NCBI GenBank assembly: GCA_043745805.1
Contig: JAYTSD010000017.1
Coordinates: 160,001-224,000, forward strand
Direction of reading: 5' to 3'
DNA: 64,000 nt
Source: Fibrobacteria bacterium
Lineage (GTDB): Bacteria > Fibrobacterota > Fibrobacteria > UBA11236
This document shows positions 45,370 through 62,901 of the stretch, piece by piece (the stretch's first letter is position 1; every line of letters starts with the position of its first letter). Both the position numbers and the translations under genes were made by a program. A model generated the notes under the pieces. It searched no databases. It was not told where the DNA came from and saw only the letters and a program-made list of their open reading frames with translations.

Positions 45370-46356
45370 TCATTTGCTTTTAGTAGATGGATTTGTAGCC
45401 TTTAGTATTTCGTCTAAACCTATCTCCACCGTAAAGCGATGTGTTTGTCCTAGTGACAACTCACTGCTTTGACTGGTCTGAAACGCATACTGTACAGCTA
45501 CTCCAGAAAAATTAAAACCCAATCCTCCGGTGAATAGCATATTGTCTCGGCTATTTTGAAATATACTATTGGCCCCACCTCGCACAAAAATGCTCCAATT
45601 ATCTTTGGAGAAACCATACTCCAAACCACCAAAGCCTTTATAATTGCTCGCTACACCATTTATTCCTTCGGTGTATTCCACATCTTTTTTGTTGGCAATA
45701 TCCGTGGCCACAGTAATCTGATGATGAGCATTGCTCCAAATATAACCCAAACCGTAGCGCAGTTCCGGTTCAATTTTATCACCCATCATATCGGCGCCTA
45801 ATGAATGCCCAGCAATACCGAAGCGAAAACCATATGGAAATTGCGTGAGAAATCCTAAATCAAAACCTGTTCCCGCACCATTATCGTTACCGCTGCTCAG
45901 CACATAGCGATTAATACTCACACCTATACTGGTATGTTGAAAGCCCAATAAGTTGTCCCAAAGCTCACGACCACCAGCTAACGAGAAATCATGCTCGACC
46001 CAATTATTCGTTTTGTAAGTATCGGTATTACCTTCTTCCAAATTTGCGTACTGCATCAACCAGCCACCTGCTAAAACTCCCACACCACTGATAGGAAATA
46101 CACTGTTGAAATAATTCACATTCAATCCGGATATATCCTTCAGCAACCAATTCGTTTCCGAAAAAGTAATTCCTTTGATTTGAGGAAGCCCTGCTGGATT
46201 CCAATAAGTGGCCGAGGCATCATTTGCGATGGCGACAAATGCCCCGCCCATACCAAAGCCGCGTGTTCCCATTTGTAAATCCAATGGTTTGGAAATACTA
46301 TATGTTACGCTGAGGGAAATGCCCAATAAGAGTCGAAGCCAATTTTTGTTTTGCAT
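45370..46356 (-). CDS. PorV/PorQ-family outer-membrane beta-barrel (T9SS-associated)
   Basis: GTRGFGMGGAFVAIANDASATYWNPAGL N-terminus, GFDLG, C-terminal LGQTHRFTV; AAGGAGG RBS. Confidence 0.8.
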   Translation of the reverse strand: MQNKNWLRLLLGISLSVTYSISKPLDLQMGTRGFGMGGAFVAIANDASATYWNPAGLPQIKGITFSETNWLLKDISGLNVNYFNSVFPISGVGVLAGGWLMQYANLEEGNTDTYKTNNWVEHDFSLAGGRELWDNLLGFQHTSIGVSINRYVLSSGNDNGAGTGFDLGFLTQFPYGFRFGIAGHSLGADMMGDKIEPELRYGLGYIWSNAHHQITVATDIANKKDVEYTEGINGVASNYKGFGGLEYGFSKDNWSIFVRGGANSIFQNSRDNMLFTGGLGFNFSGVAVQYAFQTSQSSELSLGQTHRFTVEIGLDEILKATNPSTKSK

Positions 46357-46365
46357 AGTCCCTCC

Positions 46366-49300
46366 TTATTTCTTCACCAGCCCAAGGGGCTTGCGGATGA
46401 GTTGTGAAATTTTGCCATCATCAGATACGTATTTAAAGACATAAACATAAAGTCCTGCACCTGCGAATTTGCCGGATACATTTTGCCCATCCCATTCTTC
46501 TGAAAATGTGCCAGCACTTTTTACCGTTTGCAAAGGAATGATTTCCCTGGCCATATCACCTGCTAAATCAAGAATATGCAAGGATACTTTTCCTGCCGCA
46601 GGCAATTGATAATTGAATACCGCAGGTTGATTTTGATGGATAGGATTGTGATTCCAATATACCTTAAGTTTGGTGGGAAGGGGCGCGATATCCGAAGCTA
46701 GATCATATAGGGTAAAATGATTTACAGTTACCGTAACACGATGGTTAATTAAGTCGCGACTTGACTCTCCCGCTTTGACCCACGTAGAACCATCCCAAAA
46801 AACAATGCTCAGGGTTTTGGGGTCAATATCGGGAATACCATCTTGGTTTTTATCCAAATCCGCTTCAGTATACGATAAAGTAAGTGTTACAGGTTTACGG
46901 AATATGGTTTTATCCGGTCCATATTCATGGGGCACGCCTAAAAGCTTAATTTGGTTGTCCAAAGGTTTTGGCTCTTCGATAGGATCCACAATACGAACTG
47001 TTACCTCCAGAGGATGGTATAAAGATTGGGCTGGGATAGTTACCCCGCTGCCATCAGGGCTAGTAATGGTGGCCGCAGAATCGGGCTTCACTAAAACGGT
47101 GACCTTCGGTTCAATAAATGTTACTTCGCCGGATACTGTATCGATATTCCCTGCCCTATCTCCCGTAACTAAGAGGATACGGTTTTTTCCCGGCACCAAA
47201 TTAATGATGCGGCTGAATTTTCCTTGGTCCAACGGAATACCGTTAGGACTGTTGTTAACATGCGCAGCACTATCATTGAGCACAACTAAGTTCACAAAGG
47301 CCATGCCTGAGCCTCCGCTATCGCTAAAATTGCCCTTCATCACCAATTTTTCGCTATATACTTCCCCGTGCACACTATCCGCTCCGCGTACAGGTTTAGG
47401 AAGCAAATTGAATACAGCAATAGGTGCAATATTGTCCAGTACCACAAAGCTTTGTAAGGTGGTATCATTGCCCAAAGCATCACGTCCACGTAAGGAATAA
47501 AGAATTGCTCCTGAAGTATCATTGTTAACATTCACAGTTGTGCTAAACACATTGTCACCCGCCACTAAGTCACCGTTCAAACCGTCATCATGCATAATTA
47601 AGGTTTGAGGAGTCGTCGCAATTTTCGCTGTGTATAACACCATCGCAGAATCCTTATCTAAGCCAGCAATATAATCCAAGCCTAGGGCCGAAATTACGAG
47701 TGGCAAACCTTTTTTACTTATGCTGCCATTATCAGGATAGCGCACCGAAGGCATGCTAATTTTTGGGGCGGAATTATCAATTTGCATAGAGACGATAGAG
47801 GACAAACCATTTTTTCCACTGCCATCCGTGCTACGTATTTGTAATGTGAAAGCCCCATCTTTAAATAATCGCGTATCCCAATTAAAGGTGGAATCCGACG
47901 CAACTTGCCAAGCGCCACCCGCTAAAGCAATTTCATTTTTAACAATGACATCGGGCGCTACAGCCTTAGCCTTAAAGCGTACTGTCGTTAAACCGTTCAC
48001 TAAAGCCGCCGGAGTTGGGTTATTAATAGTTACCGTAGGCGCATTGCGAATATTAAACTTCACAATCGTGGAGAAAGCCGTCTTGCGATTGCTATCGCGC
48101 ACCTGTAATTGCAATTGATGCGCCCCTTCAGTTAGAGCACGAGTGTCTAGGATCAAAGTTGAATCTGTATTCGTAGCTCGCCAGTTACCTCCATCCAGAG
48201 CATAAAAAGTCGAATCTACAAGTGCAGGCGCCATGGCTGATGCGTTGAAAAGCAAAGCTAGTTGCCCAGACACTGTCGAATCCGCCAAAGTTGTCAATAA
48301 GCGAATACTTGGAGCATTTTTACTGAGAACGGTAACCAGTAAAGACCAACCGACTTTAGCATTATTATCCGTGCTTTTAATTTGGAAAGTATGCGAACCG
48401 TCGATCCAAGCCACAGTAACCACGCTATCAACACCCGCAAGGCTCAAGGATGCATTCGCCTTACCGTCGACGTATAAAGAATCTGTAGCAATTGTCGCAA
48501 TGCCTTTAGGCGTAACGGTGTAGGTCAGGGCAACTTTTCCGGAGACCGCAGATCCAGCTATGGGCGTGGTTAACACAACAGTGGGTCCATTCTGTATCAA
48601 ATAACTTACAACTTGGGAAGTCGCTTGCCCACCAGCGGTATTGGTTACCCTGATTTGTACCGTATGATTTCCTTCACTTAAATTCGCCGTATTCCAGGTA
48701 TGCGTTGTTGTCGTAGTCGTAGCAATATAGGCCGCACCATCAATAGATATTTCCGTAACCGTGATGCTACCTGAACCTGCTGTAGTTGTAAAGGCTATAG
48801 TTTGCGTTCCTGAAAGCGTACTACCTGGAGTGGGTGTGCTTAAGCTGACAGTAGGTAAACTGCTGCTACCGCTGCCATTACCAATGGTCAAGGGTACTAA
48901 ACGATCCAAGGCTAAACCACGAATATTGGTTACGCGAAAAATTAAAGTGTCGGATCCGTTGGCCAGATTGGTTACGTTCCAAGATCCAGACCACTCCCCT
49001 GCCCTAGCAATTCGAGTTAAATCAATTTTAGTGGTGGTATCCGATGCACGAAAATATTTTACCGAAACAATGGAATCTACACCTGAACCTGCTAAACCAT
49101 TATCCTGCGCAAAGACACGCAAATTCACAACACCTTCTACGGTTGCATCATCGACCGGAAAAATCACTTGGGAATAGGGTGCGCCTAATTGTAATTCTGG
49201 CCAACCAATTGAGGAATATATACCCCCATTATTATCCAAAATCACACCATCGCTATTGGGAGAATATTCCCAATAATAATCCGCTACGGCTCCCGCTTTG

Positions 49301-50649
49301 GCATCATGATAACGGATGAAAAATCCCATCGGAGAATTTGCAGAAAAGTTTAGATCTTGTGCATCACCCGTGCGGTTAATTTGGAATTCGTATTCATAAT
49401 TTCCTGCTGCAAAACGTTTACCCATTGCTGTTTGACCTGCCGCCACATCAGCGATCCAACTTGTTGCCCCCCAATGTTGATCGTTCGCTAGCACAAAAGC
49501 ATTTTCCGTCGCTTTCAATGCATTTTCTTTGCCTGCATCTAGGATATAATTTCGCACCGCACTTGGACTGGTGGCATAACTTTGTTCTTGATAAACGATG
49601 CAAGTATCACCCGCATCATTAGTAGGATCCACTACTTTAAGACCTACATAAATATTTTTATTGGTAACATCTTCCACAGAGTAAAGTGTGGCCGGTAAAG
49701 TATGCCCATTAAAATCTGTTAGCGTGATACTGCGGCGATATGATCCACGCCAAGCATCATCGGGGGTCGTACCACCGGAAATATTGCCATCGATAATAGG
49801 ATTGCCATTGGCATTGAAGGTGGAATAAAAAGTGAGAAAAGATCGTTTCACACCTAAACGTAAATCAGCCCAACCGGGCAATGAATCAGGGCGTGTTTTA
49901 GAACGATTAGTTTCAATCCAGTTATAAGTTTTATTTCCGCCTTGTTCAAAGGCTTCAATATATAACCCTAATTCCTGGTTATTGGTTACATTGAGATAGG
50001 AATTATTATCATTAATGGTATTTCCATTCAAGGGAATTTTATATTCCGCTTGTACAAAGGAAGATCCTAAATTACTTCCCGATCCGCTAAATACGGCTGC
50101 ATTAGTATTGGCTATCCAAGTCGTACCATTATAGGATCCTTCCTCCTTGGTATTATTATTCGGAAATACTTTTGCATAGTATTCTGCATTATTTATTCCG
50201 GCTCCACCACCTTGCAAAAGATCATCATGATTGCCTCCACCTATGCCTTGATCAAAATGTAGGGTAAGGTAATTTCCTACTGCGGAATTGCTTAAGTTAG
50301 TCGTAATACCAACATAGAGATAATTATCATCATTCATTAAATAAAGCGTTGCAAGTGCAGAATCCGCACCACTCGCTGTTTTCAATCGCACTTGGCGTAC
50401 AAAAGCATTTTTCCACTCATCATATTCTACACCGGCAGATCCAAGCGGTGCATTATTGGTTTTGTCCGTAACACTACCGTTAATTTTAGGGGGAACGCTT
50501 GTGTAAGCACTGTATAATTGTAGAGCTTTGCCTTGTCCGTCCGAAATATGTGCAAAAGATGCTGGGGCGAGTATCGCTATACATCCAAAGCTTGCGCATA
50601 ATGTTTTCCGTATCGTGTGATGAAACGTTTTTTTACATCCGCCTGTCAT
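46366..50649 (-). CDS. Giant secreted protein: two DOMON/CBM9-like domains, Ig-like repeats, DDG Ca-type repeat, ZU5-like domain, FlgD-type C-terminal domain
   Basis: PKING/PIIDG...LYVG...EY.I units; PTV...P..G...SG...WNT....G.H repeats; MHDDGLNGDLVAGDNVFS; YGP...FRKPVTLTLSY...VNHFT; NP...YQLP...ILDLAG...WDG...GLYVY. AAGGAGG RBS before ATG 50649. Confidence 0.8.
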   Translation of the reverse strand: MTGGCKKTFHHTIRKTLCASFGCIAILAPASFAHISDGQGKALQLYSAYTSVPPKINGSVTDKTNNAPLGSAGVEYDEWKNAFVRQVRLKTASGADSALATLYLMNDDNYLYVGITTNLSNSAVGNYLTLHFDQGIGGGNHDDLLQGGGAGINNAEYYAKVFPNNNTKEEGSYNGTTWIANTNAAVFSGSGSNLGSSFVQAEYKIPLNGNTINDNNSYLNVTNNQELGLYIEAFEQGGNKTYNWIETNRSKTRPDSLPGWADLRLGVKRSFLTFYSTFNANGNPIIDGNISGGTTPDDAWRGSYRRSITLTDFNGHTLPATLYSVEDVTNKNIYVGLKVVDPTNDAGDTCIVYQEQSYATSPSAVRNYILDAGKENALKATENAFVLANDQHWGATSWIADVAAGQTAMGKRFAAGNYEYEFQINRTGDAQDLNFSANSPMGFFIRYHDAKAGAVADYYWEYSPNSDGVILDNNGGIYSSIGWPELQLGAPYSQVIFPVDDATVEGVVNLRVFAQDNGLAGSGVDSIVSVKYFRASDTTTKIDLTRIARAGEWSGSWNVTNLANGSDTLIFRVTNIRGLALDRLVPLTIGNGSGSSSLPTVSLSTPTPGSTLSGTQTIAFTTTAGSGSITVTEISIDGAAYIATTTTTTHTWNTANLSEGNHTVQIRVTNTAGGQATSQVVSYLIQNGPTVVLTTPIAGSAVSGKVALTYTVTPKGIATIATDSLYVDGKANASLSLAGVDSVVTVAWIDGSHTFQIKSTDNNAKVGWSLLVTVLSKNAPSIRLLTTLADSTVSGQLALLFNASAMAPALVDSTFYALDGGNWRATNTDSTLILDTRALTEGAHQLQLQVRDSNRKTAFSTIVKFNIRNAPTVTINNPTPAALVNGLTTVRFKAKAVAPDVIVKNEIALAGGAWQVASDSTFNWDTRLFKDGAFTLQIRSTDGSGKNGLSSIVSMQIDNSAPKISMPSVRYPDNGSISKKGLPLVISALGLDYIAGLDKDSAMVLYTAKIATTPQTLIMHDDGLNGDLVAGDNVFSTTVNVNNDTSGAILYSLRGRDALGNDTTLQSFVVLDNIAPIAVFNLLPKPVRGADSVHGEVYSEKLVMKGNFSDSGGSGMAFVNLVVLNDSAAHVNNSPNGIPLDQGKFSRIINLVPGKNRILLVTGDRAGNIDTVSGEVTFIEPKVTVLVKPDSAATITSPDGSGVTIPAQSLYHPLEVTVRIVDPIEEPKPLDNQIKLLGVPHEYGPDKTIFRKPVTLTLSYTEADLDKNQDGIPDIDPKTLSIVFWDGSTWVKAGESSRDLINHRVTVTVNHFTLYDLASDIAPLPTKLKVYWNHNPIHQNQPAVFNYQLPAAGKVSLHILDLAGDMAREIIPLQTVKSAGTFSEEWDGQNVSGKFAGAGLYVYVFKYVSDDGKISQLIRKPLGLVKK

Positions 50650-50861
50650 CGACGCCTCCTTATCATTTTTTTTATCTGGACTCAAAACTCATATAGTAAG
50701 CTTATTTGATTTTTGAATTGGAAATGAGATTCTCTAAAATTGATTATCTAATAGATGAATCTCTTATTACTAGGTAAGATTTTAAAATTGGATATTTTTT
50801 TTGATGTAAGTATTACCGAAATAACTATCCTGATTTCCCAATCAAAAAAATATCTATAACA

Positions 50862-50886
50862 ATTGGAAGCAAGGTTGATGCCTAAA
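50862..50886 (-). promoter_or_regulatory. Sigma-54 (-24/-12) promoter of the giant protein / porV-like unit
   Basis: Minus strand TTTAGGCATCAACCTTGCTTCCAAT: GGCA...TTGCT with exact GG-N10-GC spacing; 21/25 identical to 58985-59009. Confidence 0.8.
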
Positions 50887-50943
50887 AGAATTGGGCGAAA
50901 TTTGTTTAATTGAGTCTATATTAAATTCAAGTAAAAAAAAAGA

Positions 50944-50961
50944 TGAGGCTATTTCACCCCA
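50944..50961. promoter_or_regulatory. Candidate activator binding box 1
   Basis: TGAGGC-TATTTC-ACCCCA, variant of TGGGGT-N6-ACCCCA. Confidence 0.65.
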
Positions 50962-51034
50962 CATTCAGTTAGAAATTTCTTTATAAATATTTTAATCCTA
51001 TATAAACCAAGACTTTAGCAAGCCGTAATAATTG

Positions 51035-51052
51035 TGTAGTGATTTGACCCCA
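51035..51052. promoter_or_regulatory. Candidate activator binding box 2
   Basis: TGTAGT-GATTTG-ACCCCA. Confidence 0.6.
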
Positions 51053-51201
51053 AAAGTCTAAACGAATCGACGACTCTTACTCTATAGTATGTTAATCCTC
51101 TGCTTATTTTTTTCTTATAAAGAAATTTATGCCTTCCTCATTATTATTGACCTATTTTTCTCCGGGTTAAAACAGATGTTAAAGGAGCAAGGAACTTGCC
51201 A

Positions 51202-51620
51202 ATGAACAAAGAAAAAATTTAGTCTCTTGGAGCGGAGGCAAGGATAGTAGCCTAGTGCTGCACGAATTAATTCAGTCCGGTAAATATGCGATCGAAGCTC
51301 TGCTTTGCGTAATCAAAGAAAAAGATCAGAGTATTAATATGCATGGAGTACCCGTTGGAAAAGTACTGATGCATTATTCCGAATTGGGTATAAATAAAAC
51401 AGCCTATGGAGATTTGTTTTTAGAAGCTCTTCCACCAAGTATTGATCGTTGAGGAGAGAATAGGGAATTTCATCCCTTTGTTTTTAATGGCCCGCTCTTT
51501 AAAAATCCCGTAGGTTTCCAAGCGGCTGCTTCGGTTTTGCAACACTTCCGTGACGGAGCTCATGAATTTCTTTTAGGGTTTTGCGATCTAATACCATTAG
51601 AATTTAATACCGTATCTTAG
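51202..51620 (+). pseudogene. Decayed Dph6/MJ0570-like ATP pyrophosphatase (PP-loop) gene
   Basis: ATG 51202 reads MNKEKI*, then a frameshift into LVSWSGGKDS...MHGV...AYGDLFLE; in-frame TGA at 51450; continues GENREFHPFVFNGPLFKNPV...FCDLIP; much shorter than intact members. Confidence 0.8.
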
Positions 51621-51752
51621 TAGTTACCTTCTCTTCAATGGAAATGCAAAAAATTTGCGGGCAATGTTTGCAAAGCGAAATAGAAAATGATAAATTTGGC
51701 TGAACCTCAGGATGCTTTTTGCAATGGTTAACTGGATTGGAAATAGCGTAAA

Positions 51753-53582
51753 TTATTTGCGATAATCGTCGGCGCGTAAATCCGCTTCTTCCATTAATTT
51801 CATCAGCCATTTGCGATCTACATCCAACATTTTAGCAGCTAGCGAAACATTGCCAGCAGTTTTACCTAGCGCCTCTGCAATCGCCTTTTTATCTGCTTGC
51901 TGTCGAACTTCTTTTAAGGTCGTCTGGCCAAAGCCATTTTCGGTAGGAGCATCTCCCCAATCCCATTGCAAATCCTCTGGGCGAATTTGTTGTGTATTGG
52001 AAAAGAGCACAGCCTTTTGCATAATATTTTCAAGCTCGCGAATATTACCGGGAAACCTATAGGTCAATAATTTATTACGTGCTGCAACAGAAAAGGTTTT
52101 AAGAGGTAAACCGAACTGTTGCAGATATTTTTTGAGCAGATAATCGGCCAAGAGCAAAATATCCTGACCACGCTCACGCAGAGGGGGAAGTAGCAAGCCC
52201 AAAACCGATAAACGGAAAAACAAATCTTGCCGAAAGCGCCCTTCCTGAATTTCTTTGGACAAATCCCTATGGGTAGCACAAACGATACGTACGTCCACGG
52301 TTATGGGCTTCGTGCTGCCTATGCGCGTCACTTCGCCTTCTTGTAATACCCTTAACATTTTCACTTGCAAAGAAAGAGGTAGTTCGCCTATTTCATCCAA
52401 AAATAAAGTGCCTTGATGCGCGGATTCAAAAAGACCGACTTTGCGTTGATCGGCACCGGTAAACGATCCTTTTTCATGCCCGAATAATTCTGATTCAATA
52501 AGATTAGCCGGTATAGCGCCACAGTTAAGAGCAACAAAGGTTTTATCCATGCGTTTGGAATTTTCATGCACATAGCGTGCTAGTAATTCCTTTCCCGTTC
52601 CCGTTTCTCCTCGAATAAGCACCGTTGCATCGGTTTTAGCGATGCGTGCGGCTAACTCCATCATCCCTAGCATGGCGGGACTGGCGTAAATCATTCCGCC
52701 CTTTGATTCCATACTCACCTTTTGCAAGCGTTCTATGGTTTCCTTTTGCCTTTGCGCTTCCCCATGGCGGGATAAAATTTCTCCGAAAAGTTTACTCAAG
52801 GTATCACAAAGTAAACGTTCTTTTTCGGTAAAAGGAATGCCGCCACCCAACCTATCCATATAAAGATACCCCAAAGTATCCCCGCCTTCGCGCAAGGCCA
52901 CACATAAGATTGAAGCAATATCATTGGTACGCAAAGAGCTTAAAGAGTTTTTGTCTTCCCATTCGCCTTCATGAAGCAATACAGCATGGCTAGAGGCTTT
53001 AGCCCAATCGATAGCTCGATCGGAAAATCTTTCTAAACCGCTATGCATGGGGTAACGTGCAATAGTATGTCGCAATCCATTCGTCTTATCTTCTATCACA
53101 ACCCGAGCCGCATCGCAACGTAACAAACGAGATACTCCAGATACTAAAGGTGTAAATACATCCGCACCTCTTTCTCGCAACAATTCCACTAAGGCTTCGA
53201 TTAACTCCCCTAGAGGAGCTGACATTTCATCATGATTTATAGGGCTTTCCCCTATTGGAAAGGTATCCGTTTCATTTATAGGCTTATCTAGGTAATGGTA
53301 ACGTGATATTCCTAATTCCAAGTGATCGCCATGCACAAGTGCTAAGGCTTCAGTAACTTTGACTCCATTACATTTGATAACGCTATCCGCAGTAACTACT
53401 TGTAAAAAATATTTACCTTCCCGAAACAAAAAATGTCCCATTCTCTCTTTTAGCCCTTTTCCTTGCAATTGTAAATTGCAATCCCTGGAAGTGCCAAAAG
53501 TAATCAGGCGACCAGAAAGCACAAAGTCAGCCTCTCCATTTTCCAATTTAAGCAATGGATATTGATGGGTTGGCATAATCAA
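51753..53582 (-). CDS. Sigma-54 enhancer-binding protein, FHA-GAF-AAA+-HTH
   Basis: FHA-like N-terminus (NGVKV...LVHGDHLELG), GAF, GETGTGKE, ESELFGHEKGSFTGA, LFLDEIGE, FPGNIRELEN, Fis-type HTH GNVSLAAKMLDV. Confidence 0.92.
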   Translation of the reverse strand: MIMPTHQYPLLKLENGEADFVLSGRLITFGTSRDCNLQLQGKGLKERMGHFLFREGKYFLQVVTADSVIKCNGVKVTEALALVHGDHLELGISRYHYLDKPINETDTFPIGESPINHDEMSAPLGELIEALVELLRERGADVFTPLVSGVSRLLRCDAARVVIEDKTNGLRHTIARYPMHSGLERFSDRAIDWAKASSHAVLLHEGEWEDKNSLSSLRTNDIASILCVALREGGDTLGYLYMDRLGGGIPFTEKERLLCDTLSKLFGEILSRHGEAQRQKETIERLQKVSMESKGGMIYASPAMLGMMELAARIAKTDATVLIRGETGTGKELLARYVHENSKRMDKTFVALNCGAIPANLIESELFGHEKGSFTGADQRKVGLFESAHQGTLFLDEIGELPLSLQVKMLRVLQEGEVTRIGSTKPITVDVRIVCATHRDLSKEIQEGRFRQDLFFRLSVLGLLLPPLRERGQDILLLADYLLKKYLQQFGLPLKTFSVAARNKLLTYRFPGNIRELENIMQKAVLFSNTQQIRPEDLQWDWGDAPTENGFGQTTLKEVRQQADKKAIAEALGKTAGNVSLAAKMLDVDRKWLMKLMEEADLRADDYRK

Positions 53583-54949
53583 TTCAAGTCTTTCGATGAT
53601 CTTTGTGCAAGCATACTGAAAGTTTTTCTTTGAAAAGGAAGCAATGACATTTTCTCTATTTGCAAATCATGGCCCATTTTATCGCGACAAAACAAAATGT
53701 GAGTTCCAAAAACAACTGGAATTCCTACACGTGCCGTAGCAGGTATTAATAGTCGTTGATCTATAAATAAACGATCACACGATTCAGGGTTTTCAATATA
53801 AACCCAACCGGAAAGTTGATTTTGCCCGTGCACCATTTCTTTTAATCGCAAACCTTTTGTTAAATGTTCATTTGATTTATGGGGTAACACGAGTAAGACT
53901 CTTGATTCCTTATTTGCAGAAGTTACTGCAAAAGTTCGTACTTTAGCTGATTGTTTACCGAAATAAAAAGCCAAAGCTAAAGCCGACATGAATCCCAATA
54001 ATATTCCCACACTCCATATTTTTTTTATTCGATTCTTGCGTTGCGAAATACTCGGAAATTGCTCCATCATTTTTAATGCTTCGAGTGAATCCGGATTTTC
54101 TTCTAAGCATTCAGAGAGTAACCAATAAGCTTCTTCCTCCCGTTTAGCAAAAAGAAGATTTTTCGTCGCTTGCATAAGATGCACCGATAATTCTTGAGCC
54201 GTGAACTGTCCGATTAATATTTTCCAATCACTAGAATGGCGAGGAGCTAATTTTGTTTCCCATTCAGTCCAAAATTGAAACGCAGATTCCGGCCTCCGTA
54301 AAGGATTGTCAGCCAATAAAGCGGTAATGGGAATTTCCCATTCTGAACCTAGATCCAATTGGCGCAAAATTCTACCCAAAGCAAATAAATCTGCTTTCAT
54401 AAAATTTATAGCATCACGATCTTCCCATAATTCTGGAGCCATATAGGCTGGAGTTCCCTTTACAGCATCCACAATAGATCGTTTACCTCCATCCATTTTT
54501 TTTGCAAAACCAAGGTCTACCAGATAAATACCATCTTTGGGAGATATTAAAATATTTGCTGGCTTTAAATCACGATGGGCAAAGCCCAAACGATGTAAGC
54601 TTGCCAGAGCAGAAATAATCGCGGAAGCCAGTACTGAAGGATCCCATTGTGGTAAATCTTTTTCCAAAATGGAAAAAAGTGAAACGCCCTTAATCCATTC
54701 CATGACGATGCAAACTTGTTGCCCCCAAATGAAAGCATCGTAAATATCTGGAATACATCCCAAGGGCATTTGCGCTTGAATTTTTGCTTCCTTCAATAAC
54801 TCTTCGCGACGTAAAGGATTCTTTTCTGATAAAATTTTAATGGCTACCCATCGATCAAGTGCAGTTTGGCGCACACGATATACTGAAGAAAAAGAACCTT
54901 CCCCTATTGTCATCGGATGCGAAAATCCTTTGGGCAATTTTGGGATCAT
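53579..54949 (-). CDS. Membrane-anchored Hanks-type Ser/Thr protein kinase
   Basis: IGEGSFS, VAIK, HRDLKPAN, DLG, GTPAYMAPE, DLFALG; TPR-like helix, one TM, C-terminal PEGA-like segment. ATG 54949 overlaps the upstream stop. Confidence 0.9.
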   Translation of the reverse strand: MIPKLPKGFSHPMTIGEGSFSSVYRVRQTALDRWVAIKILSEKNPLRREELLKEAKIQAQMPLGCIPDIYDAFIWGQQVCIVMEWIKGVSLFSILEKDLPQWDPSVLASAIISALASLHRLGFAHRDLKPANILISPKDGIYLVDLGFAKKMDGGKRSIVDAVKGTPAYMAPELWEDRDAINFMKADLFALGRILRQLDLGSEWEIPITALLADNPLRRPESAFQFWTEWETKLAPRHSSDWKILIGQFTAQELSVHLMQATKNLLFAKREEEAYWLLSECLEENPDSLEALKMMEQFPSISQRKNRIKKIWSVGILLGFMSALALAFYFGKQSAKVRTFAVTSANKESRVLLVLPHKSNEHLTKGLRLKEMVHGQNQLSGWVYIENPESCDRLFIDQRLLIPATARVGIPVVFGTHILFCRDKMGHDLQIEKMSLLPFQRKTFSMLAQRSSKDLN

Positions 54950-55617
54950 GGATTTTCTCTTAATTTGCTTTCCGCAAAAGCAAACCAATAAATAATATCT
55001 TCATTTTGCGGCATTGCTCGTAAAGCTTTTAACCAGTGATCATGCGCTGGCTTAAATTCACCGGCTTGCCAAAGTATCATGCCTAAATTAAAATGAGCTG
55101 AAGCATCATTACTATCTAGTTGAAGTACTTTTGCAAATAAGTTTTTCGCTTTAGAAACTTCTCCCAGTTTGCCGTAAATTATACCCGCAAGATTTAATGG
55201 TTGAACATTATGCGGTGCACGTTCAGTAGCCTTGGCTAAAGCAGAAAGAGCTGACAAAGTGTCGTTTTGATTCAAGCAAATGCGAGCCTTTTCTGTATAG
55301 ACATCTGCTAATAAACTCGATAAATCTTCCGTTGGATGTAAACTCCTACACGCTTCAAACTGAACTAAAGCATATGCAAATGCTGAACTATCTGCTTCTG
55401 CGGTTGCTTTTTGTAATAATGCTTTACCTAAACCCAGACGTGCCAAATAATCTTCAGGATTTTCTTCTACGGCTCGAATAAAAAATTGTGAAGCTAAAGG
55501 ATAATCTCCTAAATCCAAACAAGCATAGCCTTTTTCTAAAACTGAATTTTGACAACCATTAACGATAAACAAAATGATTAACAAACCATGAAATGTAAGT
55601 TGCTTTATTTGTTTCAT
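54946..55617 (-). CDS. TPR lipoprotein
   Basis: Lipobox VNGC, multiple TPRs (ARLGLG, NLAGIIY, AHFNLG). ATG 55617 in TAATG overlap. Confidence 0.8.
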   Translation of the reverse strand: MKQIKQLTFHGLLIILFIVNGCQNSVLEKGYACLDLGDYPLASQFFIRAVEENPEDYLARLGLGKALLQKATAEADSSAFAYALVQFEACRSLHPTEDLSSLLADVYTEKARICLNQNDTLSALSALAKATERAPHNVQPLNLAGIIYGKLGEVSKAKNLFAKVLQLDSNDASAHFNLGMILWQAGEFKPAHDHWLKALRAMPQNEDIIYWFAFAESKLRENP

Positions 55618-57209
55618 TATGAACCCCAAGACTTATTCCATTTAACCGCCGCAGAATATTCTTTGTGCGGAATCCAAATGGCTGCATCTTGTGACAAGTT
55701 GGACCATGTTCTAAACATATTAAATTCTAAAGTTAGGTAACCCCAATTCATTAAAGAGCGCTTTAAATTAAATCCTATTTGAGCCCGTTGATCGATGCGT
55801 TTTTTAATTTTATGCAAAGCCGACGAGGAACTATAATATTCCTTTATACCACCATTTTCCACTCGCAATAGAGAACTATAATATTTTCCATCTACTTGAT
55901 TCAAAACTAAGCTCCGAAAACTTTGCGCTGCAGTTGAAGAAGCCGATTGCGGTATTTTCGCCTCCAGCCATGTATAGGATTTGGGATAAATTGTCAAAGC
56001 GTAACCGCTATTGATCTCTCCAATCCAATTCCAATATAGTGGGTGCGTATAGGAAAGGTTCGGAAAAATACTGATAAAACTTTGTGGTGAAATGGCAGAA
56101 GAAATGCTTCCAGGATCATTAGTATAGAGTTGATAAGCCGTAATTTTTTGATAGGGAATACTATCTTGAAATTGATTGTCCTTAAAATGAGTCGGACGGG
56201 GCTTTGAAACGTCATCGACATATAAAAGAGGAATTTTTTCAACTGCTTGATCGACTTGTACTCCGAAAAAAGAAAATAACCAAGCAAAGCCTTTCCCTTT
56301 TTGTAAAAAACCATCATGATACCAAGTTAGCCATCCGGAAGTGAAACGCTTATCTCCATGAGAATTATATTCCGATTCAATGCCTGCATTTGCAAGCATA
56401 AGTCTTTCTTCAGAAATATTGAGATAAGATATTTCCGTGCGGTAAGAATAAACATGTCCTATACTTGTTACCTGTCCCATTTGGCCTGCCAGCGTGAGCG
56501 AAAGACTGTCCCAAATATGTTCGACTTTAAATTTTAAATTGATACGATAATCGAGAGAATCATAGTAATAGTTTTTTCCAATTTCATAACCCACTCCGCT
56601 ACTTAAAGGAAAACGCTTGGGAGATAATAGCGGCCATAACAAATTTCCTTGCTGTTTAAAAAGCCAACCCGTCGAATTGAGTCCTTCTGGAGATTGCGAA
56701 AAAGGGTAATCATATGCCGTAAAATAATTTTCTCGATCATAACCTGAACTCCATTTCAAATCCCATTGTGGAATACGGTTTTCTTCAGGAATAAGTTTTT
56801 GTGGCAAGGAATCACGGAGCTGCGCCGCTTCAATCGACAATCCAGCAATACTGTATAATTTATATCGCTGCTGCAAAACCATATTTCGCATAGGTTGGAA
56901 AGCGGGCGTTCGAATCGTCAGATTAAAAGCCATTGCAGTGTCATAGGAACATTTTCCAAAAGCTGCTTCAGCAAGAAAATAGTATAAGCTGTCTAACGAC
57001 ATTCCATGCTGATAAGCCTGCATAAAATAATCTTGTGCCAAATCATTTTGACCCTTTTGTAAAGCTTGTTGACCCAGCTCCAAAACTTTTTCCACCGATT
57101 TGGAATTTTCTGATAAAGGTATAAAGCCAGATTTTTCCGCGTGCGAAATTGTTCCAACAGATAAATAAACCAATAAAAAAAATATCAGTATGCCAGACAT
57201 ACTATTCAT
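55617..57209 (-). CDS. Exported TPR plus probable outer-membrane beta-barrel protein
   Basis: Signal peptide, N-terminal TPR, then aromatic beta strands ending YSAAVKWNKSWGS. Confidence 0.6.
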   Translation of the reverse strand: MNSMSGILIFFLLVYLSVGTISHAEKSGFIPLSENSKSVEKVLELGQQALQKGQNDLAQDYFMQAYQHGMSLDSLYYFLAEAAFGKCSYDTAMAFNLTIRTPAFQPMRNMVLQQRYKLYSIAGLSIEAAQLRDSLPQKLIPEENRIPQWDLKWSSGYDRENYFTAYDYPFSQSPEGLNSTGWLFKQQGNLLWPLLSPKRFPLSSGVGYEIGKNYYYDSLDYRINLKFKVEHIWDSLSLTLAGQMGQVTSIGHVYSYRTEISYLNISEERLMLANAGIESEYNSHGDKRFTSGWLTWYHDGFLQKGKGFAWLFSFFGVQVDQAVEKIPLLYVDDVSKPRPTHFKDNQFQDSIPYQKITAYQLYTNDPGSISSAISPQSFISIFPNLSYTHPLYWNWIGEINSGYALTIYPKSYTWLEAKIPQSASSTAAQSFRSLVLNQVDGKYYSSLLRVENGGIKEYYSSSSALHKIKKRIDQRAQIGFNLKRSLMNWGYLTLEFNMFRTWSNLSQDAAIWIPHKEYSAAVKWNKSWGS

Positions 57210-57305
57210 ATCGAATTTTTAATTGTAATTTTATTTGCTAAGACCAAAGAATCTTTTCTTAAACAATGTGTTACCGTTAAAAAAATACTTATCAAAAGGA
57301 CAAAA

Positions 57306-57995
57306 TTATCTTGGCCGAGAAATAATGTATTGTAATGTCTGTTTCGATTTTCGTATTGGCTGCCCGGTTTGATTTTCCAAAAAATTTAGCTTCCGACCAA
57401 TTAGATTGAATGAGTTACTGGATAACTTTTCACTCGTCAAAAGTGGGGTGCCATGCGGGGCATGAATAGAAACCGTGGCGGTAGAAAACTGTATAGTGGA
57501 AATAATATCTGAATAATAAGTAACATTATTCGCCATATCTGTTGAATCTCCAATTGCATAAATCTCATATCCATAATTTCCATTTGCGGTATAGCGCAAG
57601 TATTCCGAATAAGTCGCGTCGCCGTTTCCAGGATAAAAGATTGAGTAGGCTTCTGGAGCCCAATAAGAATGCAGCTTAACACTTGCGGCGGAGTCATAAA
57701 AGGCAACGGATCCAAAGGGAAAGACAGAATTTTCCACAGCTAACATATAAGCAATAAATTGTGCCTGTGTCCAACTTTCGGCTGTTGGATAAGTGATTTT
57801 GTCGATTGAATATACAACCAAGGATAACTGTGATTTATGGGCTTTTGTTGAATCGCGAAAATAGTGTTGATTGGTTCTAGCCTTAATTTGCACCCAGTTT
57901 GTAGGTAAAATGATGGAATAACCGAGTGAGGCATCGGTGATAGTTTCAGCGAAAATTGAGGTAACAAATAATACCAGTACCACTAAAAATTTCAT
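57306..57995 (-). CDS. Secreted protein, PsbP-like fold possible, short basic C-terminal tail
   Basis: Signal peptide, GYSIILPTNW start, IISTIQF end of domain, tail VSI...FNLIGRK. Confidence 0.55.
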   Translation of the reverse strand: MKFLVVLVLFVTSIFAETITDASLGYSIILPTNWVQIKARTNQHYFRDSTKAHKSQLSLVVYSIDKITYPTAESWTQAQFIAYMLAVENSVFPFGSVAFYDSAASVKLHSYWAPEAYSIFYPGNGDATYSEYLRYTANGNYGYEIYAIGDSTDMANNVTYYSDIISTIQFSTATVSIHAPHGTPLLTSEKLSSNSFNLIGRKLNFLENQTGQPIRKSKQTLQYIISRPR

Positions 57996-58399
57996 TTTTG
58001 TAAATCCTTAAATTCTAATTTACGTTCTTCCTTTCTATTTTCCATATCTGCCATTGCCTTGTCAACTCGATTCTTTACTTCGGGTGGTAAATCTTTTAAT
58101 GCTTCTAGCTTTTTTTCATGGCGTTCTTTTGGTATGCCTTCAGAAGATGATTTCTTTTTTGTTTTTGATGGAGACTCCTTAATCAGAGGAGCTCGAGCAG
58201 AATCTACTTTTGCACGATTGTCTTCAGGAAGTTTTTTTAATATTTCTGCGTATAGTGCATCATACTTTACTTTAGTTGGAATCACAACGGGGGAGTTATT
58301 TTGCTTTTGAGTAATTGAATTATTTTCTGGATCAGCATTTGCAATTATCGCTAAACAAAGTAGGCTGGGTAAAATTTTAAGACAGTCTTGAAATCGCAT
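57992..58399 (-). CDS. Small exported charged helical protein (paralogue of 58496-58915)
   Basis: GAGG RBS before ATG 58399, signal peptide, LPEDNRAKV and LPPEVKNRV repeats. Confidence 0.65.
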   Translation of the reverse strand: MRFQDCLKILPSLLCLAIIANADPENNSITQKQNNSPVVIPTKVKYDALYAEILKKLPEDNRAKVDSARAPLIKESPSKTKKKSSSEGIPKERHEKKLEALKDLPPEVKNRVDKAMADMENRKEERKLEFKDLQK

Positions 58400-58495
58400 G
58401 TTAACCTCATTGTTACTAGAAAAAGGGAGAAATAACTTTCCCTTTTTCATACCTTAAATCAAAGAAGAATTTTAATTCCCTCTAATGCACAAAGC

Positions 58496-58915
58496 TTAAG
58501 GATTAGCTTTGGCATCCGCTTTTCTTTCATCCAAACGTTTAGTCACAACCTCTTTGGCCTTAGTTACCTTTTCTTTAGCAACATCAGGTAAGCCATTCAA
58601 TGCATCGATAGCTTTTTGTAGATTTAAAATCGCGGCAGCTTTTTTTTCTGTAATCGTAGCTTGAATTTCTTCTGGAGTTTTTCCGGAAGCCTTCATCGCA
58701 TCAATATCAGCTTTAGCAGCTTTAGCTGCAGCTTTAGCTGCAGCTATTTTATCAGCAACACCGGCAGGTAGGTTTTTCATGGCATCAGCAACTTTGGTGC
58801 TAGAAGTAGCCTTGCCCATTGAGTCTGCTGCTGGAGGAGTGCTAGGTTTGCCTTGTGCAAATACACCAGTAGCCAAAGCCATTCCTAAGGTAAGAGTCGT
58901 TAATAATGCTTTCAT
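58496..58915 (-). CDS. Small exported Ala/Lys-rich helical protein
   Basis: AAAGGA RBS, signal peptide ending VFA, LPAGVADKI and LPDVAKEKV repeats. Confidence 0.75.
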   Translation of the reverse strand: MKALLTTLTLGMALATGVFAQGKPSTPPAADSMGKATSSTKVADAMKNLPAGVADKIAAAKAAAKAAKADIDAMKASGKTPEEIQATITEKKAAAILNLQKAIDALNGLPDVAKEKVTKAKEVVTKRLDERKADAKANP

Positions 58916-58984
58916 AATTAATCCTTTTTGAATTGTTAAGAAGCCTTCATTTGTACGATTACTTCAAATCAGGCTTCTCTTTAT

Positions 58985-59009
58985 ATTGGAAGCAACCCTT
59001 ATGCCTAAA
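58985..59009 (-). promoter_or_regulatory. Sigma-54 (-24/-12) promoter of the kinase/activator operon
   Basis: Minus strand TTTAGGCATAAGGGTTGCTTCCAAT, exact GG-N10-GC spacing. Confidence 0.8.
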
Positions 59010-59066
59010 TAAAAACTTCATAATTAATCAAAAAAAGGCATGTTTAAAAAGGAATTCCTTATTTAA

Positions 59067-59084
59067 TGGGTTGTTTTAACCCCA
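59067..59084. promoter_or_regulatory. Candidate activator binding box 1
   Basis: TGGGTT-GTTTTA-ACCCCA. Confidence 0.65.
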
Positions 59085-59155
59085 ATAGGACTTCAAATCA
59101 TCAAGTATCATTGATAAGTCATTGAAAAATATGAGTTACACAAAACAAGCTTTCT

Positions 59156-59173
59156 TGGGGTGAAATGACCGCA
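59156..59173. promoter_or_regulatory. Candidate activator binding box 2
   Basis: TGGGGT-GAAATG-ACCGCA. Confidence 0.65.
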
Positions 59174-59199
59174 ACTAAATTTCAAACTTAAGGATAAAA

Positions 59200-59763
59200 T
59201 CAAGAAAATAAATTCTGAAACAAGAAAAATGAACCGCATACCCCTAAGCCCAAACTAACATACCACAGAGGTTTTTTCTTCACCAGCACTGCAATAGCTG
59301 ACATGGCAATTGCGATCTGAAAAAATGTTACCCCGCGGGCAAGTACACTGTGTTGTGCTAAATGTTGTTCTCCTGATTTTTGTTTTTCTTCCGCTTTTTC
59401 TTGAATTTCTTTTTGTTCTTTTTTGTAATCGGAAATTTTTTCAATGTCTTCCTTAGAAGCTTGTTTTCCTAAGACGGTAAGCAATTCTAATTTATTGGAA
59501 AGTATTGCCGACTTAATACCTTTGGCTTGATAATACGACCATTGATCAGAAGCCTGTAATTGCTCAATCATCGCTTCATTAGCATGATGACCCGCTAATA
59601 AAGCAGCGATAGCGGCAAGCACAGCGAGCAAAGCTGAGCTTAATGCAACTTGCATAACCCAACTCACTCCATTTTTATGTCCCTCACCATGGCCCGCTTC
59701 ATGGGCGGCCTCATGAATATTTTCATGCAAATGTTCGGTGGGAACTTCGATTTCTTCCGGCAT
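59200..59763 (-). CDS. DUF4337-like membrane protein
   Basis: His-rich N-terminus, TM, ASDQWSYYQAKGIK, coiled coil, FQIAIAMSAIA and two TMs. Confidence 0.75.
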   Translation of the reverse strand: MPEEIEVPTEHLHENIHEAAHEAGHGEGHKNGVSWVMQVALSSALLAVLAAIAALLAGHHANEAMIEQLQASDQWSYYQAKGIKSAILSNKLELLTVLGKQASKEDIEKISDYKKEQKEIQEKAEEKQKSGEQHLAQHSVLARGVTFFQIAIAMSAIAVLVKKKPLWYVSLGLGVCGSFFLFQNLFS

Positions 59764-59797: not shown

Positions 59798-61657
59798 CTA
59801 AGCTTCTACCCAGCGTCCATGCTCTTTGATAAGATTGACCAAGGCTTCGGGAGCATTGTCTTCGACAATATTTTTTTTCACGCAATCTCGACCAACATAT
59901 AAATTTACCTTACCCGGTGCGCCACCCACATAACCAAAATCTGCATCGGCCATTTCGCCAGGTCCATTTACAATACAACCCATAATGGCAATAGAAATAT
60001 TTTTTAAATGGGCCGTGCGTTGACGGATTTTTTGCGTGGTGGTTTGCAAATCAAAAAGCGTACGTCCACAACTCGGACAAGCCACATATTCGGGTTTCGT
60101 TTTGCGTACGCCGGCCGCTTGTAAAATATCATACGCTAAATGCATAGCTCCGCGCGCACTGGAACTAGTGATATGTAATAAATCACCCAAACCGTCCACT
60201 AACACAGCGCCTAGTTTTGCCGCTAATTCCATATTGTCCTCCGGAGAGCCATCGCTAATTCCACGTAAAACAATTAAATCCGAACGTTTTAACTTTTCAA
60301 TCCAAGCGGCCACGGAACGATAACCAGCAATAGGATTTTCTGTTCCTACAAAAGACCATAAAATTTGGTCTTTTTGTAAAACCTCCGGTGAGATTTTTGT
60401 GAGATGCATAACATCTTCAATAACTATTTCTAAAGCACCGGAAGGAATGTTTTTAGCGTTAGCAATTAAATCACTGCTTTTAACAATATTCCAAACAGTC
60501 ACTTCGACAGGCTCAGTGACCGAAGTAGCTGGCTTAAGAACCAAGGCAATTGCCTGATTTGACAATCCAGTCACGGAGCTTGTCGAAGTGACCCATTCTA
60601 ATTGTCTTTCTCCTTTGGGCAAAGTTTCTTGGGGAGGTAAGGGCGTGCCAACCAAAATTTTTTCTCGATGTCCCGCCATTAAATTTTCCATAGGAAATTC
60701 TACAGAGTCTCGTCTATGATACGCATAAAAATTTAGGTTTTCTTCAAGTACAGAGGACGCTGCAAGTTTTGCGGTATCACAAAGTTCAACTAAAATTTTA
60801 GCTACAGGAATTTCATGCACCGGATCTTCGGTGAGAGAAACACGTACGGTATCCCCTATTCCATCTAATAATAAAGCGCCAATGCCAACCGAGGATTTTA
60901 AACGCCCATCTTCCCCATCACCCGCTTCGGTCACCCCAACATGGAAAGGATAAGGTTTATGTCCTTGTGATAAGCGAGCGGCCAATAAACGATAAGCCTG
61001 CACGGCGACTTTGGGGTTGGAAGACTTCATGCTAAAAACAATTTGATCAAAGTTTTCCGCTTCGCAAACGGCCAAATATTCCATGGCACTTTCTACCATG
61101 CCTTCGATGGTATCGCCAAATTTCCACAGCATTCTATCGGATAAGGATCCATGGTTAGTTCCGATACGCAAACATACTCCGCGCGATTTGGCTTCGCGAA
61201 TTAATGGCGTAAAGGCTTCAAATACTTTATCGCAACCAGCCGCAAAAGTAGAATCATCATATAAACGTGTGACAACTCCTTTGGAGTCCACAAAATTGCC
61301 TGGATTGATACGCACCTTCTCTACCCATTTTACTGCTTCCATGGCAGCACGTGGTTGAAAATGAATATCCGCTGAAATTGGGACGGTACAACCCGCAGCG
61401 CGAACTTGTTGCACAATATCACGCAAGCACTCAGAATCTTTTTGCGTAGGTGCAGTAATGCGTACTAATTCACAACCGGCGGCAGCCAATTCCAAAGTTT
61501 GCTTTACTGTAGCCGCAACATCTTTGGTGTTGGTGGTGGTCATGCTCTGCACTAAAATGGGCGCATTGCCACCAATAATGCGATTGCCTACGCGCACTTC
61601 TAATGTTTGCCGGCGCATTGGTGCGAAGCGATTATTCATATAAGGTAATTGAGTCAT
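59798..61657 (-). CDS. ispG: HMBPP synthase IspG, long form
   Basis: VQSMTTT, ADIHF, RINPGN, RIGTNHGSLS, HVGVTEAG, GDTVRVSLT, CPSCGR, MGCIVNGPGE; central insertion. Confidence 0.95.
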   Translation of the reverse strand: MTQLPYMNNRFAPMRRQTLEVRVGNRIIGGNAPILVQSMTTTNTKDVAATVKQTLELAAAGCELVRITAPTQKDSECLRDIVQQVRAAGCTVPISADIHFQPRAAMEAVKWVEKVRINPGNFVDSKGVVTRLYDDSTFAAGCDKVFEAFTPLIREAKSRGVCLRIGTNHGSLSDRMLWKFGDTIEGMVESAMEYLAVCEAENFDQIVFSMKSSNPKVAVQAYRLLAARLSQGHKPYPFHVGVTEAGDGEDGRLKSSVGIGALLLDGIGDTVRVSLTEDPVHEIPVAKILVELCDTAKLAASSVLEENLNFYAYHRRDSVEFPMENLMAGHREKILVGTPLPPQETLPKGERQLEWVTSTSSVTGLSNQAIALVLKPATSVTEPVEVTVWNIVKSSDLIANAKNIPSGALEIVIEDVMHLTKISPEVLQKDQILWSFVGTENPIAGYRSVAAWIEKLKRSDLIVLRGISDGSPEDNMELAAKLGAVLVDGLGDLLHITSSSARGAMHLAYDILQAAGVRKTKPEYVACPSCGRTLFDLQTTTQKIRQRTAHLKNISIAIMGCIVNGPGEMADADFGYVGGAPGKVNLYVGRDCVKKNIVEDNAPEALVNLIKEHGRWVEA

Positions 61658-61764: not shown

Positions 61765-62901
61765 ATGTTTCAATTACCAATTAAGGTTCAAAAATTTTTA
61801 GGTAATATTGGGTATTCTCACTATTTTGCTTTATTGCTTTTGCCCCAAATTATTTTGGCAATGCCCTCCGAACTCGCCAGCCAAGAATCCGAATCAAGGC
61901 AAGCCGGAATATACTTTGCCAATGATGCGCAACTTTTAACTCTCGGTTTATTAAGTGATGAAGATCGATATTTTTCCCAAGGCGTTCATGTCTTTTGGAT
62001 GAATGCCCCGCATACCGTTCAGGCTAGCTGGAAACCTATACACTGGATAGGCGAAAAATTAAATGCTGAAAATACGGCTTCCAGCTTTCGCTTCGGCCAA
62101 GATATTTTTACTCCCAATGATTTAAGTATGAGCTCGTCACCTATTCTTGACGATCGACCTTTTTTAGGTTGGACACATTTGGATTTAGCACAGCGCTTTT
62201 ATGGGCAACTAGGCATAAAAGCAACGCGCTTAATTTTGCAAATGGATATTGGATTGGTGGGGCCATTATCATTCGGAAAAGATGTTCAAGTTTGGTACCA
62301 TGAAAAACGCAGAGCAACGTCCACCCATCCCGAACTCGATCCAGACCCGTCCAAAGGTTGGGATAGGCAATATGGAAAAAATGGATTTCCAAGTCGATTC
62401 CAGGTAATCACCAATTATGGAATAGATATTCTAAATAGAAAATATGGTAATATTTTTGGTATTAATCTCGGCGCCGAAACTTTCATTAATGTAGGAACGC
62501 TTTATGGGATTCTCGGACTAATTGCACAATCGCGATTAGGGCTAATGACACGTGATTTTTATCAACCCCAAATCGACGGTAATTATAATGGTTGGGAAGG
62601 TTTTATTTTTACCCGGACGGAAGTAAATGCCGTAGGCTGGAATAAAGTGCTAACGGGTGAACCCTCAAGTGAGGTAAAAATAGCGCCTTTGCTATTAAAG
62701 CATGAATTGGGAATATTATTCAGAGGTCCCTCGCCCATACCCGAATTGAGTTTTAGTCTATCATTTTGGAGTCGCGAAACCCTAAACAACCCTCGTGAAC
62801 CCTTTCAACTTGAACATACCGACTATCGCCCTTATCTTCAAGTACGCGGGCCATGGTTTGATCATGGTTTTGGAACAGTGCGTTTGGTTTGGCTTTGGTA
62901 A
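61765..62901 (+). CDS. Lipid A deacylase LpxR-family outer membrane protein
   Basis: ND...DRYFSQG, GQDIFTP, DRPFLGW, IGLVGPLSFGKDVQ..YH, terminal Trp. Confidence 0.75.
   Translation: MFQLPIKVQKFLGNIGYSHYFALLLLPQIILAMPSELASQESESRQAGIYFANDAQLLTLGLLSDEDRYFSQGVHVFWMNAPHTVQASWKPIHWIGEKLNAENTASSFRFGQDIFTPNDLSMSSSPILDDRPFLGWTHLDLAQRFYGQLGIKATRLILQMDIGLVGPLSFGKDVQVWYHEKRRATSTHPELDPDPSKGWDRQYGKNGFPSRFQVITNYGIDILNRKYGNIFGINLGAETFINVGTLYGILGLIAQSRLGLMTRDFYQPQIDGNYNGWEGFIFTRTEVNAVGWNKVLTGEPSSEVKIAPLLLKHELGILFRGPSPIPELSFSLSFWSRETLNNPREPFQLEHTDYRPYLQVRGPWFDHGFGTVRLVWLW

Follow-up and report, generated by a model that had tools for sequence, protein, structure and literature searches.

In a 64,000-nucleotide stretch of DNA from an uncultured Fibrobacteria bacterium (contig JAYTSD010000017.1, positions 160,001 to 224,000; hereafter, the window), two sigma-54 promoters were each found to be preceded by a pair of 18-bp boxes of the form TGGGGT-N6-ACCCCA. 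One promoter precedes a seven-gene operon whose last gene (51753..53582, minus strand) encodes a 609-residue enhancer-binding protein, and the other precedes the gene of a large surface protein. As judged from the sequence, the four boxes probably serve as the enhancer sites of this activator, which would thereby also stimulate expression of its own gene; we place the probability of this reading at about 0.8. Both binding and self-activation are points that we infer because a profile search recognized a DNA-binding domain in the activator and in no other protein of the operon. An earlier note on this DNA had named the same protein as the binder and envisaged a small regulon with positive feedback; that proposal gained support from the presence of paired boxes at 9/9 operon promoters, their tendency to travel with the activator gene, the single DNA-binding domain among the operon products, and a recognition helix without a match elsewhere in the genome.

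The four 18-mers were located at the coordinates given in the earlier note (starting at 50944, 51035, 59067, and 59156), each copy departing from TGGGGT-N6-ACCCCA at one or two positions. At the operon promoter, the proximal box (59067..59084; TGGGTTGTTTTAACCCCA) and the distal box (59156..59173; TGGGGTGAAATGACCGCA) carry one mismatch each, while those of the second promoter (50944..50961, TGAGGCTATTTCACCCCA, and 51035..51052, TGTAGTGATTTGACCCCA, respectively) carry two each. The geometry is 6-N6-6 with dyad symmetry, such that the centres of the half-sites are separated by 12 bp. The promoters themselves, AGGCATAAGGGTTGCT at 58991..59006 and AGGCATCAACCTTGCT at 50868..50883, both on the minus strand, were recognized by a GG (at -24) and a GC (at -12) spaced 10 nt apart within TGGCAC-N5-TTGCW; each differs from this pattern only in its first base, and the two have in common an extended motif of 20 nt, TTTAGGCAT-N5-TTGCTTCCAAT. 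The offset of +58 reported for the nearer box was identical at the two promoters, 58 bp from the extended motif being equivalent to 61 bp from the promoter 16-mer, and the box-to-box distances of 91 and 89 bp were likewise as claimed. Given an assumed start site, the box centres fall at approximately -95.5 and -186.5 for the second promoter and -95.5 and -184.5 for the operon promoter, in agreement with the predicted -95 and -185. Sigma-54 itself is encoded in this genome (rpoN; G000:C8:351468-353021, matched with 403 bits where 277 would suffice).

One element of the original description was not upheld. IHF-like sequences had been reported between the boxes of each pair, but none of them matches the IHF consensus WATCAANNNNTTR, which occurs exactly four times in the window where 7.3 matches would be expected by chance, and not at all within 50884-51060 or 59007-59175. 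Moreover, the sequences in question lie between the two boxes and not between enhancer and promoter. The genome carries four genes of the HU/IHF family.

The arrangement is conserved among relatives. Forty other genomes were searched, the relatives named below being metagenome-assembled genomes of Fibrobacterota, and 11 of them encode the activator as a full-length orthologue of 49-64% identity. The order of the seven genes is syntenic in Fibrobacterota relatives of 40-63% GC, the GC content being 41-63% at the loci that include all or nearly all of the operon. When the DNA upstream of orthologous loci, which the earlier note had suggested as a test, was inspected, a TGGCA-N6-TTGC promoter with both a proximal and a distal box was present at 9/9 operon promoters, with 0-2 mismatches in the proximal box and 0-3 in the distal one. 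These nine loci (the window, WIN, together with L021, L022, L023, L024, L026, L027, L032, and L034) were reached through orthology of the activator alone. Omitted from the promoter counts were L025, L028, L008, L033, L037, L038, and L041, at which the contig ends before the start of the operon, as well as L031, L035, L036, and the unpublished genome G021.

Further promoter sets were obtained from a second promoter situated upstream of the operon at four loci, from matches to the exact box, from matches to a combined pattern of box and promoter, and from sites inspected individually. Over the resulting 17 promoter regions of 10 genomes, the proximal box was centred between -95.5 and -99.5 in 15 and at -86.5 or -87.5 in two, the distal box was centred between -175.5 and -186.5 in all 17, and the spacing of the boxes was 80-83 bp in 11 regions and 87-92 bp in six. 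Four additional sites fit the arrangement, two at copies of the first operon gene and two, with a spacing of 67 bp, at genes of genus g5. A pattern match in G013:C85 was not confirmed as a site of box and promoter, and no promoter lies close to a box at L022:10963.

The distribution of the boxes also follows that of the activator gene. Exact palindromes numbered 18 in 8/11 genomes bearing an activator orthologue and two in 2/29 of the others (G017 and G021), compared to four sites for a reversed-pattern control; within genus g3, nine exact sites were found in five genomes with the orthologue and two in five genomes without it. The combined pattern of box and promoter gave 17 matches in 9/11 orthologue-bearing genomes and seven in 6/29 others, with 5 and 3 for the controls; among the genomes without an orthologue, one pattern site, tRNA-like in appearance, was counted twice. 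Genome G021 was included in these tallies of orthologues, palindromes, and pattern matches, and in that of the large surface protein discussed below.

The properties of the activator are those expected of a sigma-54-dependent regulator. Its central AAA+ domain was matched by PF00158 (Sigma54_activat) with 243.5 bits, together with the AAA lid, and displays the motifs GETGTGKE, LFLDEIG, and GSFTGA, the last replaced by GAFTGA in most orthologues. Its C-terminal Fis-type helix-turn-helix (HTH) domain corresponds to PF02954 (HTH_8; 22.5 bits, cut-off 22) and has a recognition helix, DRKWLMKLM, that hardly varies across 18 orthologues. No other HTH of the genome shares this helix, the best being 41% identical over 54 residues (DRKVLRDIM) and encoded at a locus without TGGGGT boxes.

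A binder other than the neighbouring activator has to be considered. The boxes could be genuine sites of a different enhancer-binding protein, or of a sigma-70-type regulator, with the activator of the operon recognizing other sequences. The 15 matches of the activator query in the genome attest to many paralogues, and G004 and G008 contain isolated exact palindromes, some of them conserved between the two genomes, in intergenic DNA lacking a sigma-54 promoter. Nevertheless, we regard this explanation as unlikely, given that the boxes accompany the activator operon at every orthologous promoter of the nine, that they are scarce where no orthologue of the activator was found, and that the closest alternative HTH is so divergent. 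A paralogous module in the same genome points in the same direction, as its activator has a different recognition helix and no TGGGGT-type boxes were detected at its locus. In this module (G000:C2:35096-44103), genes for proteins of 727 and 577 residues accompany those for a TPR lipoprotein, a Ser/Thr kinase, and an activator of the FHA type with 40% identity, and a sigma-54-like promoter was noted at C2:43421, ahead of a gene of 215 codons.

Less probable still is the notion that the palindromes act as nucleic-acid hairpins, with box 50944-50961, which is followed by a run of nine T residues when read on the minus strand, serving as the intrinsic terminator of the activator operon. A terminator scan did list this element (50962-50943, minus strand; a weak stem of seven pairs, three of them counted as G-T, a 6-nt loop, and nine T), but it returned only nine such sites where 14.1 were expected from shuffled sequence and hence no enrichment. 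The T run is missing at the other three boxes, the stems of three of the four would be mismatched, and the putative terminator lies approximately 790 bp beyond the stop codon of the activator gene. Furthermore, 30 boxes from relatives yielded the consensus T-G-G-G-G-T-S-r-a-t-y-S-A-C-C-C-C-A, in which the arms (positions 1-6 and 13-18) keep their sequence rather than co-vary and the 6-bp spacer is variable, a pattern of a protein site and not of an RNA stem. An origin by chance, with base composition generating four matches beside two fortuitous promoter-like sequences, can be all but dismissed. It would account for the mismatches in each box and for the 76 matches with no more than two mismatches in the 3.95-Mb assembly (40% GC), and the six such matches in the window (1.52 expected) were reached in 1/100 shuffles. 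However, only two pairs within 150 bp of one another exist among those 76, and these are the two pairs reported here, placed at equal distance from two promoters with a 20-nt motif in common. A weight matrix trained on the 30 boxes from other genomes and then run across this genome ranked the four boxes 2, 11, 13, and 41 among 165 matches, the distal operon box (score 20.9) being second, the distal box of the other promoter (11.7) forty-first, and the proximal boxes scoring 13.9 (operon) and 14.3 (second promoter). Both the -96 and the -185 positions were occupied by matrix-scored boxes at just 2/1288 sigma-54-like sites, again the reported two, against an expectation of 0.0005, and the arrangement was met again in genomes that differ widely in their GC content. 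Other high-scoring boxes (C8:168905, C40:51879, and C45:91509) are single, lie inside long open reading frames (ORFs) without a promoter, and were treated as chance matches.

Several observations weigh against assigning the boxes to the activator as enhancer sites. None of the window's own four boxes is a perfect palindrome, and those of the second promoter (50944 and 51035) each include one weak half-site with 2/6 mismatches. The positions of -96 and -185 presuppose that transcription starts 26 nt past the initial T of the 16-mer, which is also that of TGGCA. At the distant loci L029, L030, L039, and L040, where the activator is 47-51% identical, the paired arrangement was not found; L029 is without a box and the other three have one box-like site each. 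In genus g5 (G004 and G008), single intergenic exact palindromes occur without a sigma-54 promoter match, some of them upstream of orthologues of the large surface protein, which indicates that the motif is not exclusive to sigma-54 promoters and may be put to a further use in this genus. With respect to self-activation, internal promoters may exist within the operon. Finally, the residues by which FHA domains bind their ligands are, canonically, the Arg of GR, the Ser and His of SxxH, and the Asn of NG, and the phosphothreonine-contacting Ser is absent here, the position three before H50 being R, V, or I and a serine in 0/18 orthologues. The link from kinase to FHA domain is consequently weaker than the domain names suggest.

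Taken with these reservations, enhancer function would proceed as follows. Dimers of the C-terminal Fis-type HTH would bind the half-sites TGGGGT and ACCCCA, one dimer site being centred approximately 96 bp and another approximately 185 bp upstream of the start of transcription at each promoter. The bound dimers would then assemble into an active AAA+ ring, and looping of the AT-rich DNA in between would bring this ring into contact with the sigma-54 RNA polymerase at the -24/-12 promoter, which would be opened at the expense of ATP hydrolysis by the ring. As the operon promoter would drive expression of an operon ending in the activator's own gene, positive feedback would result, while the second promoter would direct production of the 1439-residue Ig-domain surface protein together with that of a FadL/PorV-like one. 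As to the input, it would most likely come from the membrane Ser/Thr kinase encoded directly upstream, read through the N-terminal FHA domain of the activator, its GAF domain, or both.

This kinase link is one that we infer. The Hanks-type Ser/Thr protein kinase (53579..54988, minus strand; 469 residues; Pkinase E-value 4.8e-38) contains the motifs HRDLKPANIL and VAIK and a single hydrophobic span near residue 330, followed by some 120 C-terminal residues; its gene remains adjacent to that of the activator in relatives, and its stop codon is overlapped by the activator start by 4 bp. The FHA domain was recognized by PF00498 (21.4 bits against a cut-off of 20.7), as were those of 14/15 orthologues, and the profile matched the FHA domains of Ki-67 (E-value 7e-7) and EmbR (E-value 1.7e-4). 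Residues G24, R25, and H50 are invariant among 18 orthologues and G73 is nearly so. All 15 FHA sequences also matched the non-canonical Yop-YscD_cpl family.

The remaining five genes of the operon, all on the minus strand, encode proteins of the cell envelope or predicted to be secreted. The first, g139 (58496..58915), specifies a secreted, all-helical protein of 139 residues that is 43-74% identical to 10 orthologues, and relatives carry additional g139 copies behind a like arrangement of box and promoter. No match to g139 was found in Pfam or NCBIfam, and all matches of an Atlas search scored below 0.8. Its AlphaFold model consists of helices only with a confidence (predicted local distance difference test, pLDDT) of 60, and, being both of such low confidence and all-helical, it was considered too weak for a fold search. 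It is followed by g152 (57992..58450; 152 residues, predicted secreted, helical, no family match), g229 (57306..57995; 229 residues with a signal peptide and a weak PsbP-like match of 22.5 bits, under the cut-off of 23.5), and g530 (55617..57209; 530 residues, secreted, no family match), for which an outer-membrane barrel would be a guess from its sequence. A TPR lipoprotein (54946..55629; 227 residues), with matches to TPR families and a lipobox-like ...VNGC, precedes the kinase and is kept in synteny. The junctions between genes consist of overlaps of 4 to 43 bp or of gaps of 45 and 96 bp, and this compactness means that the first promoter can reach the activator gene. Upstream of the operon's enhancer are genes for a DUF4337 protein (59200-59763, minus strand), GcpE/IspG (59798-61657, minus strand), and an LpxR-like outer-membrane protein (61765-62901, plus strand). 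The window stretch was present in four DNA runs from one sediment study, and no RNA run was listed as containing it.

Downstream of the second promoter, the large surface protein (46366..50685, minus strand; 1439 residues) contains Ig-like domains of the bacterial type, a domain of the choice-of-anchor X family, and, at its C-terminus, one that is FlgD_ig-like. The gene that follows, g328 (45370..46356, minus strand), encodes a protein of 328 residues with weak FadL/PorV-like matches and is probably co-transcribed; a g328-type gene lies downstream of BIG-like genes in six relatives. In G004 and G008, both of which carry the activator, the gene for the orthologue of the large protein is preceded by one box; no box was found upstream of the orthologues in G023 and G006, two genomes in which the search for the activator yielded no orthologue, or in G030, whose activator orthologue is a distant one. 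Between the second promoter and the activator gene are the remains of a PP-loop ATPase gene (51202-51620, plus strand), matched by Diphthami_syn_2 with 26.5 bits over 51225-51449 and including SWSGGKDS. This decayed gene shows a stop after six codons, a change of frame, and an in-frame TGA at 51450-51452, and falls far below the 219 positions of the family model. A third sigma-54-like match, TGGCAAGTTCCTTGCT (51186-51201, minus strand), has no boxes upstream, overlaps the start of this decayed gene, and is probably a product of chance.

A number of other features were recorded at the loci of relatives. A TAAC element lies between the boxes 7-9 nt past the distal box in 7/11 promoter regions with a spacing of about 81 bp (and at +15 in an eighth), and 18-19 nt past it in 3/6 regions with a spacing of about 89 bp, so that its distance to the proximal box stays at approximately 51-55 bp while the distal box shifts by some 10 bp. 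Among the 17 regions, it was seen at L021, L023, L024, L032, L034, L022, L042, and L044 and at 59135-59138 of the window, and is absent from the window's second promoter; it could represent a third site. Behind the second set of boxes and promoter located just upstream of the operon in some relatives is a gene for a small lipoprotein (L021:16511-16945, L023:2890-3273, L024:13117-13464, and L032:3771-4178) with the conserved motif KVT[IL]CH[IL]PPGNPANAH..[ST]VG[AS]PAV.AHL.HGD, and no counterpart of it was found at the corresponding place in the window. At L039:4190-4500 and L040:2530-2820, a box-like site and GGCA[TC]-N5-TTGA are followed by about 200 nt that end in two hairpin and T-run elements and contain no obvious ORF; these stretches may encode a sigma-54-dependent small RNA. 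Lone intergenic palindromes of the form TTGGGGT-N6-ACCCCAA without a sigma-54 promoter were noted at L049-L055 (G004 and G008), L072, and L073, of which L050/L055 and L053/L054 appear from their similar flanks to be matching sites in G004 and G008.

The enhancer arrangement is of the NtrC type, with an FHA-type activator, and its mechanism is classical. The NtrC enhancer at glnAp2 of enteric bacteria consists of sites of the form TGCACC-N5-GGTGCA lying approximately 30 bp apart. As there, a -24/-12 promoter is preceded, at a distance of roughly 100-190 bp, by two inverted repeats suited to dimers with a Fis-type HTH, the AAA+ activator is of the same family (TIGR01818 ntrC matched with 314 bits, below its cut-off), and the regulator's own operon is, presumably in the present case, activated. 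The differences concern the half-sites, which here form TGGGGT-N6-ACCCCA, the separation of the sites by 80-92 bp, the input, provided by FHA and GAF domains in place of a receiver domain, and the partner, a Ser/Thr kinase rather than a histidine kinase. FHA-domain enhancer-binding proteins were reportedly described in Myxococcus xanthus by Jelsbak, Givskov and Kaiser in 2005. In both cases the sigma-54 activator begins with an FHA domain and the genome abounds in Hanks-type kinases; the present system, however, belongs to another phylum, has its kinase gene directly preceding and overlapping that of the activator, and involves an inserted GAF domain and an FHA domain without the canonical serine. 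TyrR belongs to the same superfamily of activators; its boxes, TGTAAA-N6-TTTACA, share the 6-N6-6 geometry, and the window's activator gave a weak match to it. The promoters at which TyrR acts are of the sigma-70 type, whereas the sites described here, whose half-sites also differ, are at sigma-54 promoters, with the possible exception of the single boxes of g5. The style of inference is that of comparative genomics in Desulfovibrio vulgaris, for which activators co-localized with operons having conserved sigma-54 promoters and upstream palindromes were reported in the article text, some of them proposed to be autoregulated (PMC4641369). That study concerned another phylum and other target genes, and no GGGG-containing motif appears in the article text (PMC4641369). 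A literature search found no described sigma-54 enhancer for Fibrobacter or Fibrobacterota, nor was TGGGGT-N6-ACCCCA encountered as an activator site in the titles and abstracts of the leading matches.

A broader and distinctly more tentative possibility is that the operon represents an undescribed, Fibrobacterota-wide pathway of envelope signalling, in which a membrane Hanks-type kinase, the TPR lipoprotein, and outer-membrane partners might govern transcription by sigma-54 polymerase by way of a non-canonical FHA domain, with the strongly conserved, secreted helical g139 as the invariant output. The activator may in some genera additionally work at lone palindromes without sigma-54 promoters, and a third dimer or a bending protein may occupy the TAAC element. 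With the mechanism being classical, the value of the finding is as annotation and as an experimental handle, rather than as an answer to an open question. It provides a DNA motif, a promoter architecture, and a probable two-promoter regulon for one sigma-54 activator of the Fibrobacterota, and would connect sigma-54 control, in a group other than the myxobacteria, with a eukaryote-like Ser/Thr kinase. It further marks the secreted g139, g152, g229, and g530 and the giant Ig-domain surface protein as candidates for co-regulation, which would offer a point of entry to their role in the cell envelope.

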